A DNA stretch of 15,654 nt from Candidatus Thorarchaeota archaeon (GTDB taxonomy: Archaea; Asgardarchaeota; Thorarchaeia; Thorarchaeales; Thorarchaeaceae). The first letter of the stretch is position 1. Each line of letters starts with the position of its first letter. Below are positions 3,001-15,654 of the stretch, piece after piece. The notes under the pieces were generated by a model that had not been told where the DNA came from, searched no databases, and saw only the letters and a program-made list of their open reading frames with translations. A program made the translations under genes and the position numbers. Where the stretch lies: positions 2,114,016 to 2,129,669 of the forward strand of contig CP070761.1 in assembly GCA_020348985.1 (NCBI GenBank). Reading direction: 5' to 3'.

Positions 3001-3414
3001 ATCGTGGTAGTCCTGCTCTACCTATACTTCGTCAAGGGAATGTTTCGGGGGCCGATTATCTCGCCCACGGTTGACATTCCTTCGAAGCTTCGTAACATAA
3101 AGAAGCTTGCAGATGCTGGGAAGTACAGTGCAGCTATAACACTAGCGTACCGTACATTTGAGCAGATGTGTGGGACGAAGATTGGGTCCGAGCGGTTACA
3201 CTCAGAGACAGCACGCGAATACATTGAGAGAGTGCTTAAGTCACTCCCATTGGATGCAGCGTCTGTCGAGGAGTTCGTGCAGGCCTATGAGGAGGCACGT
3301 TTCTCCGACCACGAGATAAACCGCGAGCGATATGAGCTAGCGATAAAGATCTTCACAGATCTATATCCACGAATAGAGAGAACTAGTGCTACAGTTCCGA
3401 CCGCAGAAACATAG
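1..3414 (+). CDS. Giant membrane-anchored surface glycoprotein (5'-partial) with tandem Ig/macroglobulin-like beta repeats, one C-terminal TM helix and a cytoplasmic DUF4129-like domain
   Basis: Frame 1 is open from base 1 (aat ctg tcg ttg...), so the true start is probably upstream of the window. About 9 repeats of ~100-120 aa with pattern (Y/F)xx(D/G)Exhxh(S/T)GxLx...NG..h.Gxxhxhxw. Many N-x-S/T sequons. TM segment YLLPFLALAGAIVVVLLYLYFV at ~2968-3033. C-terminal AITLAYRTFE...SETAREY...YEEARFS matches DUF4129 motifs. Confidence 0.85.
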   Translation, partial: NLSLTDLLGAVYLWASYTSTSPLLWEDADSLPASQVTLTKYLFDLSIASNGTNFHLDEIVHVWGQLTYQHNGTELAGQPIRIYWTNLTGQTVFQWYTTNLTGWFDFYYNISISNDAPGSVSIYAEFVSGSQWWNDSSSSSLGFNLDRYSFDLTITTNFLWYYLDEVVQVSGQLTYQTNGTGLAFWPIRIYWDWNNGTLVFFDGPTTDGSGNYNFNYNLTPGVDNEATVTIWAEFAHSNPLWNYRDSTTTDIDLFKRTSILLMIPTPNVLYLNESITFTASLILQNTTPIVGAQVSIWWNFLNGTTIRITTQATNGSGIVEWLFSGMDDFPPGAFLVYADWAGDALINGDSSPAQGVTVQRWATDITGFSTGGATDYRPTETVPITGTLRYVSGPTPYGGVLVRILVEGFEVGTAPTQSDGSFSFNWYIPADTTTGAYDVTVSFISSVNWIADFTTAPITLNIDAFDLDSSTFIVIPVVPTVLYLDGQLNISGILQLDNGTFYSGAEVYLYWDHANDVTGPLLIRVTPLISAGDGRFQYVFTPDSATPLGLADVWAEVTPAEAYITQWTSPIRVIDIQQIPVNLVSDASDFLRYRGDSLTIFGNLTFANGSGMDGFDVILEWDGVPTDRTTVTDAIDGYFEFTLSIAWNQDLGMITYRVIFDRPTVAFEAAEYSAQIEIRDLVTVYLDTSSVTYVVRGNDLVLTGFIENANGNVPGVPLEAFIDGNPEITGASSSDGTFQLTLPIDIAYSGGSHTITVDLQSGFYYEGTSDSFTIDFRIATTLVVRFDQISDVMPGERFGAVISLFDDQGAAVPGAMLTFYLNGTEIQAVGSIDTTGTSTTQFEVASSIDQRGLYVLEASFAGFGDYEGNIAETADSIHVFTDVYFVNNSPQAVTVGQTLTLRGQLLDAPLAEGGMPIVRRSITVNLNGTGTANLVTDLDGQFSHVVGTVRDDFVSYSFYVTLNSLVSSIQSDSFQIALQTGGFPLQLGDYLLPFLALAGAIVVVLLYLYFVKGMFRGPIISPTVDIPSKLRNIKKLADAGKYSAAITLAYRTFEQMCGTKIGSERLHSETAREYIERVLKSLPLDAASVEEFVQAYEEARFSDHEINRERYELAIKIFTDLYPRIERTSATVPTAET

Positions 3415-13207: not shown

Positions 13208-13957
13208 TCAATCGTTGGGGAAGACAATACTTCTCAACTTACGAAAGACTTCAACTACTCTATCATTTCCAAATGAATAGAGTTCAACAAGAGTATCGTA
13301 TTGCTTCAAGACTTGCTTGTCGGCAACATCGCCTCTGATTCGGCTGACAACTTTCTCGCGACCTTGTGCCTGCAACGCATTGAGTTCGACCCAAAGATCC
13401 ACGACCTCCTTCTTCTGTTCCTCTGTGAGGCCTAGGTTGAAAGATCTTGACATATCATCAACGTATGTTGTCAACTTCCTGCGCGCAGCTTTGCCTTCTG
13501 CGCCCAGGTGACTAGTAGTCACGACGAACCCTTTCGATGTCCTGCGATAGTAGTCAGTTGTTCTATTCCCCTTTGTAACAGTTCCGAATTTGATTACATA
13601 GCCAGCATCAATTAGCTTCGGCAGGTGATGGTATACCTGGTTCTTTGTGATCTCATCACATCCAACGCACTCGGGGGAAAGCTTGACAATCTCAACAACA
13701 GAAAGTGCATGTCTCTTAACTTCGCGCTGTCGGATTATTCTGTCTCCAGTCACCTCGTCCCTGCTTTCGGATGTGATAGTATCATCAATGCCCTCTCTCA
13801 GGACCTTGAGAATCTGAACCCTCACAGTATCGTCAAGTTCAGCTGCCCTCTTCGGATCCCTGACAAATTCAACATCAGTAACGACCCTCTTAGCTTCCTC
13901 GGTCATTTCAAACTCTATGTCTTCTCGCGTAAATGTATCTTGTAGTTCATCGGACAT
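13208..13957 (-). CDS. Winged helix-turn-helix (ArsR-like) transcriptional regulator with a C-terminal helical domain
   Basis: RVQILKVL...LSVVEIVKL...TKNQVYHHLPKLIDAGYV...TTDYYRRT is a wHTH signature. SD GAGGTGG lies just upstream of the ATG. Confidence 0.82.
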   Translation of the reverse strand: MSDELQDTFTREDIEFEMTEEAKRVVTDVEFVRDPKRAAELDDTVRVQILKVLREGIDDTITSESRDEVTGDRIIRQREVKRHALSVVEIVKLSPECVGCDEITKNQVYHHLPKLIDAGYVIKFGTVTKGNRTTDYYRRTSKGFVVTTSHLGAEGKAARRKLTTYVDDMSRSFNLGLTEEQKKEVVDLWVELNALQAQGREKVVSRIRGDVADKQVLKQYDTLVELYSFGNDRVVEVFRKLRSIVFPND

Positions 13958-14040: not shown

Positions 14041-14051
14041 AAATATATAAG
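14041..14051 (-). promoter_or_regulatory. Putative TATA box for the wHTH regulator gene
   Basis: The minus strand reads CTTATATATTT, about 85 nt upstream of ATG 13957, in an AT-rich intergenic region. Confidence 0.5.
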
Positions 14052-14346
14052 TTTGTTGGACACACCATTCATCAACTTTTGTTTGCCCAGCAAACAAACA
14101 ATCACTGCATTTGAACATTGCATCTCTAGTCAAACGGTTTAGACTGCCATTCTGCCGTTTAATATCGAAATTCAGAGCTTTCAGGCAATCATTGCATACA
14201 TCTCTCCAGGTTCCATAAGAAGCAGGAGCACAGAATAATAACTAACGTGTTTATCACTCTGGCCAATCATAGTCTTTTTGGCAATCAGAACCGTCCAAGT
14301 TTACAATTTGAACCATTCCATATCTGAATGGTTGGCTGACCAAACC

Positions 14347-14354: not shown

Positions 14355-14389
14355 GATTCGGTGTGTGTGATATACGTGGTCAAAGTGAC

Positions 14390-14499
14390 GGTTTGGATTA
14401 CACACAAAAGCGAACGTGGTGGTTCGGAAATGAGCTGTCTTGGTATAGATGGCAGCGTTTCTCGTAACCCACCGGGTAACGAGAATAGATATCCAAACC
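14390..14499 (+). ncRNA. Candidate structured RNA or leader (four-way junction), family unknown
   Basis: Closing helix GGTTTGGAT (14390-98)/ATCCAAACC (14491-99) encloses three hairpins: CGAAC/GTTCG (14411-26), GCTGTC/GGCAGC (14434-56) and TTCTCGT-A-ACCC/GGGT-A-ACGAGAA (14459-85). Strand inferred from the TATA box. Confidence 0.45.
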
Positions 14500-14545
14500 T
14501 TGCGTTCGATTCGGTGAAGCAGACTGTTACAATCGGTGATATACA

Positions 14546-14653
14546 ATGGCTCTAGTAAAGAACACTCGAAAGAGAACTGTGATGAAGAACAAGAAAGTCG
14601 CACAGGCCCTAGTGGCGGATGCGATTGAATTCGCATACACTTACCGGAGGTAA
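14546..14653 (+). CDS. Small basic peptide 1, 35 aa: MALVKNTRKRTVMKNKKVAQALVADAIEFAYTYRR
   Basis: SD GGTGAT (14535-40) 5 nt before the ATG; similar to the next micro-ORF. Confidence 0.65.
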   Translation: MALVKNTRKRTVMKNKKVAQALVADAIEFAYTYRR

Positions 14654-14658
14654 ACTGA

Positions 14659-14745
14659 ATGGCACTTGCAAAGAGAAACAAGAATCTACTCCAGAAGAAG
14701 AGTATCTCGACAAAGGCTGTTGCTTACGCATACTTGCGCAGGTAG
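14659..14745 (+). CDS. Small basic peptide 2, 28 aa: MALAKRNKNLLQKKSISTKAVAYAYLRR
   Basis: SD GGAGGT (14646-51, overlapping the end of peptide 1) 7 nt before the ATG; similar to peptide 1 with synonymous codon differences. Confidence 0.65.
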   Translation: MALAKRNKNLLQKKSISTKAVAYAYLRR

Positions 14746-14751
14746 ATTGAG

Positions 14752-14871
14752 ATGATCCGAAAGACGGAATCTGATCAATCCGAGGTGCAAAAGCACAGTG
14801 ACGGCTCTGCTTACTCAACAAAGCGTCGAAGCATGACTCTGGAGGATGTGCTCGGGCTTGAACCAACCTGA
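14752..14871 (+). CDS. Small peptide 3, 39 aa: MIRKTESDQSEVQKHSDGSAYSTKRRSMTLEDVLGLEPT
   Basis: ATG 6 nt after the peptide 2 stop; weak SD AGGT (14740-43); internal AYSTKRR echoes the AY..RR ends of peptides 1 and 2. Confidence 0.4.
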   Translation: MIRKTESDQSEVQKHSDGSAYSTKRRSMTLEDVLGLEPT

Positions 14872-14942
14872 GCACTCCTAACTGTTTAGTTCTATCAATC
14901 CTGGTTCACTGCTAAATCTCGCTTTTGGCCAAATTTCGCCAA

Positions 14943-15654
14943 TCACTTTCTGAACACAATCTGGTAGAATGTATCGTTCATAACGTATGAAATCTCTATA
15001 TCTTTGGCCTTGTCAGGAAGGTGCTCCAAGGGCGGCGTGGCTGCAAACAACGAGTTTGCTTCAATAATCTGTTTTCCTCTCTCAGACTTGCGTACCTGAG
15101 GCGAAAGACCCTCATCAACGACAACCACAGTGCCCTCCTTTTTGACAATCCTCAACATCTCATTCAGGGCGCCAGGTATGTCCGAGAACGTGTTTATGCC
15201 TCCAGTGTGAAGCACCATATCGAAACACGAGTCAATGTAGGGAATGTTGAAGACACTGCCATAAACAAGATTCAATGGCAAATCGTTCTCCTTCGCTTTT
15301 CTTCTTGAGACTTCTAGCATACCTGTAGACAGATCCATGCCATGAAGGTTGAAGCGTCCCATTTCGGTGTCGTAGAGTTCAGCCAATGCCACGAAATTCG
15401 CTGCCGTCCCGATGCTCACGTCAATGATTCTCAACGGACCCTCGATCGGGATGAATTGGGCCATCTGTTGCCTTTCTTTCATCATATCAATACCGAGCCA
15501 TTCATCGTACTGTTTCACACGTTCGTCATACACTTCGGCCATTTCGTTGTATTCTGCAATCCACTTCGCATCCTCCTCGCTTATCTGTGGATACACCAAT
15601 GATGGTATCCCTTTGCTCACAGTCCATGCATGACCTTTCTCGCAAACAAGCGTA
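14943..15654 (-). CDS. Class I SAM-dependent methyltransferase (UbiE/Methyltransf_11-like) with an N-terminal Trm112-like segment; 5'-partial
   Basis: Motif I variant IIDVSIGTA, GMDLSTGML, IPYIDSCFDMV, ALNEMLRIVKKEG. The frame stays open to the window edge and reads TLVCEKGHAWTVSKGIPSL, so GTG 15620 is probably not the real start. Confidence 0.88.
   Translation of the reverse strand, partial: TLVCEKGHAWTVSKGIPSLVYPQISEEDAKWIAEYNEMAEVYDERVKQYDEWLGIDMMKERQQMAQFIPIEGPLRIIDVSIGTAANFVALAELYDTEMGRFNLHGMDLSTGMLEVSRRKAKENDLPLNLVYGSVFNIPYIDSCFDMVLHTGGINTFSDIPGALNEMLRIVKKEGTVVVVDEGLSPQVRKSERGKQIIEANSLFAATPPLEHLPDKAKDIEISYVMNDTFYQIVFRK

Follow-up and report, generated by a model that had tools for sequence, protein, structure and literature searches.

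Is the 110-nt stretch at 14390-14499, located ahead of a micro-peptide operon in a Candidatus Thorarchaeota archaeon, a discrete structured RNA, or does its fold have another origin? The window analysed here covers 15,654 nt of a genome that consists of a single contig of 3.16 Mb. In this window, the element is flanked by a divergently oriented gene for an ArsR-type wHTH regulator (13208-13957, minus strand), the homologues of which are annotated as ArsR-type regulators of Thorarchaeota, and by a three-gene micro-peptide cassette (pepA, pepB and pepC, 14546-14871). A convergent UbiE-type methyltransferase gene follows the cassette, and orthologous loci in other genera retain the order of regulator, cassette and methyltransferase. 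To our knowledge, regulatory RNAs and promoter architecture are almost unexplored in Asgard archaea, and a literature search on Asgard or Thorarchaeota leader RNAs returned nothing relevant.

A sequence-only reading of this stretch had proposed a new four-way-junction RNA, either a riboswitch- or attenuator-like leader or a co-transcribed sRNA. As described below, the leader is clade-specific and most likely acts in cis, and the four-way junction is not supported as its functional unit.

The four-way junction in the isolated element

Every feature that had been described for the fold is present on the plus strand, and RNAfold reproduces the geometry exactly. The closing helix P1 is a perfect 9-bp helix (GGTTTGGAT/ATCCAAACC) formed by 14390-98 and 14491-99. 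It encloses hairpin H1 (14411-26) with 5 bp (14411-15/14422-26), hairpin H2 (14434-53) with 7 bp (14434-40/14447-53, including two G-U pairs), and hairpin H3 (14459-85) with 7+4 bp flanking an A-A mismatch. The minimum free energy of the isolated element is -40.1 kcal/mol, compared to a mean of -24.9 ± 3.4 kcal/mol for dinucleotide shuffles (z -4.54), and none of the 200 shuffles is as stable. The minus strand of 14390-14499 is likewise stable (z -3.9). For 254 segments of 110 nt in the first 10 kb of the window, the mean z is -0.19 (sd 1.15), and a value near -4.5 occurs about once per 250 segments. One segment of coding DNA (3081-3190), inside a gene for a giant Ig-repeat protein, reaches about -4.6 and equals the element. 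The z score of the element is therefore a roughly 1-in-250 event and not unique.

The element also has the location that had been claimed, within a long leader that separates the peptide operon from a canonical TATA box. The TATA box (TTTATATA, 14347-54, plus strand) is conserved in two relatives (L026 and L030, see below), and the ATG of pepA is at 14546. Transcription is predicted to start near 14376, based on the usual archaeal TATA-to-start spacing of about 26 nt, which would place the element in the 5′ leader. The two competing pairings that had been pointed out, including CGAACG/CGTTCG, are genuine inverted repeats (I9 and I4 in the repeat analysis), and they out-compete P1 and H1 in folds of the entire predicted leader.

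The expectation that the element matches no known RNA is borne out by Rfam and ARAGORN. No Rfam 15 family is found in the whole window at the gathering threshold, and a permissive search gives only chance lncRNA and snoRNA matches, with 13-17 bits against thresholds of 40-75. ARAGORN finds no tRNA or tmRNA gene in the window. Inspection by eye reveals no convincing C/D or H/ACA boxes, and there is no Rfam match to an sRNA. The functional assignments fare less well, as the leader has no sign of a ligand-binding core, a terminator or an anti-terminator. No T-run is seen by eye in the leader, before the cassette, and nothing indicates an independent sRNA. A Shine-Dalgarno-like sequence, GGTGAT (14535-14540, plus strand), precedes the ATG of pepA; the GGTGA is conserved in four sequences, and its assignment as a Shine-Dalgarno motif is putative. 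The pairing of the Shine-Dalgarno/AUG region differs between homologues in the full-leader folds, with no conserved masking.

Conservation and phylogenetic range of the leader

The leader is present in three relatives, the metagenomic contigs L026 and L030 as well as L029, in which it is truncated. They derive from sediment samples (JGI 3300041075 for L026, 3300060479 for L029 and 3300041080 for L030) and were recovered via protein look-ups with the regulator and the methyltransferase, and the structure comparisons use the three full sequences (window, L026 and L030). The identity of the element is 76-81% between the window and the relatives and 90% between L026 and L030. In comparison, it is 28-50% for the spacer just upstream and 51-62% for third codon positions of the flanking genes. 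Because the element is 76-90% identical while the spacer and synonymous sites are near saturation, the leader is under purifying selection and, as judged from these alignments, is selectively maintained in the relatives. A block of 23 nt (14484-14506) is invariant across the three full sequences.

The window and L026 also share a tract with 88-100% identity at 14611-15090, which covers pepB and pepC together with the 3′ spacer and the methyltransferase gene's 3′ end; the identity of other coding DNA is 65-93%. The tract may be due to recombination or to constraint at the nucleotide level, and part of the measured conservation could thus be inflated by recombination.

The distance from the TATA box to the first peptide ATG is 199 nt here, compared to about 40-70 nt in the orthologous loci of other genera, where the long leader is missing. 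A covariance model built from the window sequence (R1) finds only chance matches inside coding DNA among 85 genomes of the family. A model built from the three sequences (R2) finds no full homologue among 86 genomes of the class. Two of its short matches (L033 and L036) correspond to the operator op2, described below, and the start of pepA, and two others (L034 and L035) have neither the operator motif nor a peptide cassette. Metagenome scans give no match for the regulator protein and a single unrelated chance match for a 20-mer, pattern scans of genome collections and the IMG/VR viral collection do not find the element, and exact look-ups of pepA and pepC return no record. The leader is thus found only in a narrow Thorarchaeota subclade, and does not constitute a discrete RNA family of wide distribution.

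A 41-codon ORF (14430-14555, plus strand) overlaps the element and is open in all three homologues. It is not evolving as a coding sequence, and the overlapping frame is not the conserved element. The ratios of synonymous to non-synonymous changes among its changed codons are 5/11, 3/17 and 1/12, and the differences at the first, second and third codon positions (4, 7 and 10; 6, 12 and 9; 4, 7 and 5) show no 3-periodicity. With non-synonymous changes dominating and no excess at third positions, a coding uORF or leader peptide was rejected. A longer version of the frame (14361-14555) is broken in the relatives by indels upstream of 14430.

The favoured fold of the full leader

The four-way junction does not hold up as a functional unit when the relatives and the full leader are considered. 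P1 has a bulged C and has lost one pair in the relatives, H1 has lost one pair, the top of H2 has shifted its register, and the top of H3 has C-C or C-U mismatches. The stability of the isolated element is not conserved, with z scores of -4.4 (window), -2.5 (L026) and -1.15 (L030). On the three-sequence alignment, 87.5% of the cells in the four-way model are paired, with one double change, the same as for shuffles. No compensatory changes beyond the level of shuffles are found, although three full sequences give this comparison little power. The RNAalifold consensus differs from the four-way junction (column-shuffle z -3.3, structure conservation index 0.70). The isolated L026 element retains a four-branch shape, and the pairing probability of P1 in the isolated elements is 0.98, 0.96 and 0.54. 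In the full predicted leader, however, it is 0.00-0.02 in all three homologues.

A different fold is common to the three homologues in full-leader folding (14385-14530, plus strand). Its outer helix, P0, pairs 14385-95 with 14520-30 (probability 0.83-1.0 in three of three). Inside it, a long interrupted stem pairs 14411-28 with 14492-14508 and incorporates the CGAACG/CGTTCG pairing; its stem-B portion has a probability of 0.96-1.0 in all three. Together with H2 and H3, this gives a three-way junction. Hairpin H3 (14459-14485) has a pairing probability of 0.85-1.0 in each homologue; the pairs in its lower 7 bp either stay the same or become wobble pairs, and its top is variable. The consensus of this fold has 96% of its cells paired, with nine one-sided wobble changes. 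Double changes, which a riboswitch would be expected to show, number one in the four-way model (equal to shuffles) and zero here, counts from three full sequences and hence of low power. The z scores of the 150-nt core are -4.9 (window), -2.4 (L026) and -3.2 (L030) for the plus strand. In the folding models, the favoured fold of the full leader is the long interrupted stem capped by H2 and H3, not the four-way junction.

Operators and a probable promoter duplication

The arms of P1 correspond to parts of a repeated palindromic operator. A predicted operator, op1 (GGTTGG-N5-CAAACC, 14330-14346), abuts the TATA box, and a second, op2 (14390-14405), is located after the predicted start. The left half of op2 (GGTTTG) is intact in the window and its right half is degenerate (CACAC); the right half is intact (CAAACC) in L026, L030 and the genera g11 and g7. 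Six loci from at least three genera have both sites as inverted half-sites with fixed spacing and promoter position across species, as in palindromic wHTH operators, with op1 at -17 and op2 at +36 to +43 relative to the start of the TATA box. The palindrome class is rare, with five sites in the 3.16-Mb genome. In loci without the long leader, the ATG of pepA is at +67 to +72 from the TATA box. A further palindrome lies upstream (14311-14333), AACCATTC-N7-GAATGGTT in the window and AACCATT-N9-AATGGTT in the relatives.

The 5′ arm of P1 is the left half of op2, and the 3′ arm is the right half of a relic operator, so the helix arms are explained by the GGTTTG and CAAACC half-sites. The 5′ arm in L026 and L030 instead forms an operator palindrome that is local and intact. 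H3 is not accounted for by the operator motif.

The relic operator half belongs to a relic second copy of the promoter (14493-14516). It contains the right half CCAAACC, a dead TATA box (TTGCGTTC, 14500-07) and then GATTCGGTG, and is a direct repeat of 14340-63 (D1, 24 nt, 79% identity), with differences only in the TATA core. The dead TATA sequence is itself conserved, as part of the invariant block 14484-14506. Direct repeats D3 and D8 also count toward a duplication. Moreover, the first 93 nt or so of the aligned region, from op1 to a relic ATG, match the promoter, op2, short UTR and pepA ATG of g11. Based on the direct repeats and this alignment, the most plausible reading of the leader is that the promoter/UTR module was duplicated in tandem. 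The middle 70 nt (14419-14488) were considered as a decayed copy of pepA and rejected, as their local alignment is no better than that of shuffles (z -0.9 to 1.1), which leaves the boundaries of the duplication uncertain.

TTTATAT and TTATATA are enriched about 7.5-fold upstream of long ORFs in the genome. TAGATAT (14485-91) is enriched only 2-fold upstream of genes and is unlikely to be a proximal TATA box.

The promoter of the divergent wHTH regulator gene carries the operator and TATA box in inverted and slightly degenerate form (inverted repeat I1, 14043-14071, minus strand), which suggests that the regulator may be autoregulated through its own operator copy. Elsewhere in the genome, GGTTTG-N5-CAAACC followed by TTATAT (G000:C1:761112-761128, minus strand) is located about 60 nt upstream of an ORF with an aldo/keto reductase-like N-terminus. 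This site could be an additional target of the same regulator.

Evidence for action at the RNA or DNA level

The minus strand of the 150-nt core has z scores of -3.6 (window), -4.2 (L026) and -4.2 (L030). As it is as strong as or stronger than the plus strand in L026 and L030, symmetric DNA palindromes could explain most of the stability. On the other hand, substitutions in the helices keep 10 pairs and break 5 on the plus strand, against 2 kept and 8 broken on the minus strand. This bias toward plus-strand pairing is mild (Fisher p 0.041; sign test on shared helices p 0.06). In addition, the only operator part within the invariant block 14484-14506 is an orphan right half-site that lacks a left partner at N5 spacing. 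These observations hint weakly that the stem and hairpins, once transcribed, have a structural role.

Proposed origin and function of the leader

The best explanation, which we would give about an even chance of being correct, is a subclade-specific transcribed leader of about 170 nt that arose by tandem duplication of a promoter and 5′ UTR, contains operator half-sites that pair with each other in the RNA, and acts in cis. The cassette promoter and 5′-UTR module would have been duplicated to give this leader, with the 110-nt stretch as its core. The upstream copy would have retained op1, the TATA box, op2 and the relic ATG, and the downstream copy would have lost its TATA box (now TTGCGTTC) and become leader sequence; the two copies are separated by about 70 nt of unexplained origin (H2 and H3). 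The scattered half-sites of the operator can pair with each other in the RNA because it is palindromic (GGTTTG-N5-CAAACC), and they would account for most of the leader's capacity for base pairing. This pairing would produce the four-way junction in the isolated window element, and the long stem and three-way junction in the full leader and the homologues. At the DNA level, op1 and op2 would bracket the TATA box and the predicted start, and would allow repression by the divergently encoded wHTH regulator. At the RNA level, to which the evidence points weakly, the probable role of the stem and hairpins in the transcript would be to tune the stability or translation of the micro-peptide mRNA.

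How much of this takes place in the RNA can be answered in more than one way. The leader could be a lineage-specific regulatory RNA, with the long interrupted stem and the three-way junction (H2 and H3), that was born from a duplicated promoter, controls the micro-peptide operon post-transcriptionally and possibly binds the basic micro-peptides or another factor; we regard this as a tentative possibility. Conversely, the conserved blocks (op2, the relic half-sites and the H3 palindrome) may bind the wHTH regulator or other proteins in the DNA only, with incidental RNA folds. The conserved operator layout and offsets across genera, the coincidence of helix arms with half-sites, the equal or better minus-strand z scores in two of the three homologues and the lack of covariation are all consistent with such a DNA-only role. 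However, the orphan half-site in the invariant block and the preference of helix substitutions for plus-strand wobble pairing are not expected from it, and we consider it possible but less likely than the best explanation.

A discrete four-way-junction RNA, riboswitch- or attenuator-like or co-transcribed as an sRNA, would be new given the absence of an Rfam match, and the z score of -4.5 in isolation, the four-branched L026 element and the high P1 probabilities of isolated elements would fit it. It is nonetheless unlikely, as P1 is essentially absent from the full leader, its 5′ arm is an intact local palindrome in L026 and L030, the three hairpins are altered in the relatives, the z score falls to -1.15 in L030, and neither a T-run terminator nor a coding-type uORF is found. 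It is less likely still that the element is decaying debris of the promoter duplication with no role. The dead TATA box, the relic ATG and the degenerate right half of op2 in the window genome have the appearance of such debris, but the element has stayed 76-90% identical beside a spacer and synonymous sites near saturation, and even the dead TATA sequence is conserved. Finally, selection on the small ORF, either 14430-14555 or in its longer form 14361-14555, is highly improbable: its frame is open in all three homologues, but the excess of non-synonymous changes, the absence of a third-position excess and the indels that disrupt the longer version argue against it.

Under the duplication scenario that we prefer, the locus is a traceable example of how tandem duplication of a promoter can give rise to a long 5′ leader. 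The micro-peptide operon is widespread in Thorarchaeota, and the locus also defines a layout with two operator sites (op1 and op2) for the operon's regulator. Moreover, it cautions that repeated palindromic operator half-sites can mimic a convincing multi-branch RNA with a strong z score.

Comparison with known systems

The predicted sites resemble the operators of archaeal ArsR/PadR-type wHTH regulators, which are likewise palindromic, have fixed spacing, and are located just upstream of the TATA box and after the predicted start. The divergent regulator gene with the same site in its promoter is a further similarity. There are also differences, however: the sites here are predicted from sequence, the operator parts are separated by additional orphan half-sites and by a 70-nt insert rich in hairpins, and some of the conserved block does not resemble an operator.

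Autoregulatory mRNA leaders are found in operons of small basic proteins, for example the bacterial ribosomal-protein leaders and the archaeal L1 and L7Ae mRNA sites. Here too, the 5′ leader is long and structured, and the operon behind it encodes very small proteins rich in Lys and Arg. In contrast to ribosomal-protein-type leaders, this one does not mimic rRNA, shows no covariation and occurs in a very narrow phylogenetic range, and nothing points to RNA binding by the peptides.

With riboswitches and attenuators, the element shares its location in a leader and its mutually exclusive helices, but it has no conserved ligand-binding core, Rfam match, terminator T-run or coding-type leader peptide. 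Its organization, about 110 nt between perfect 9-bp inverted repeats with flanking direct repeats, is also that of MITEs. A MITE or other repeat was rejected, as blastn-short and nhmmer find this locus alone in the genome; unlike in MITEs, the element is single-copy and its inverted repeats are operator half-sites.

Micro-peptide cassettes in other loci

In many Thorarchaeota genomes, members of the micro-peptide family (MAL.K...ST.A..YAY.YRR) are encoded in cassettes of two or three genes (loci L003-L021). Another genome, G011, has at least five distinct loci with an identical second peptide (L010, L015 and L017-L021). In L029 and L030, an extra insert of about 100 nt between pepA and pepB encodes a further peptide paralogue, the fourth, which apparently starts at a TTG codon. 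Genes for a radical SAM protein and a second methyltransferase lie between the cassette and the regulator in a 43-kb relative contig (L030:4680-6808 and L025:1-2080), a hint that the peptides might be modified.

The window genome has two more paralogous peptide loci (G000:C1:1829160-1829480, plus strand, and 1706414-1706503, minus strand). The paralogous cassettes have another promoter type, in which GTCAC-N5-GTGAC palindromes and repeats of a TGTGAC-like motif precede ATTATATA, which is located about 40 nt before the ATG (G000:C1:1829016-1829160, and upstream of L006, L008, L010, L017, L020 and L021).
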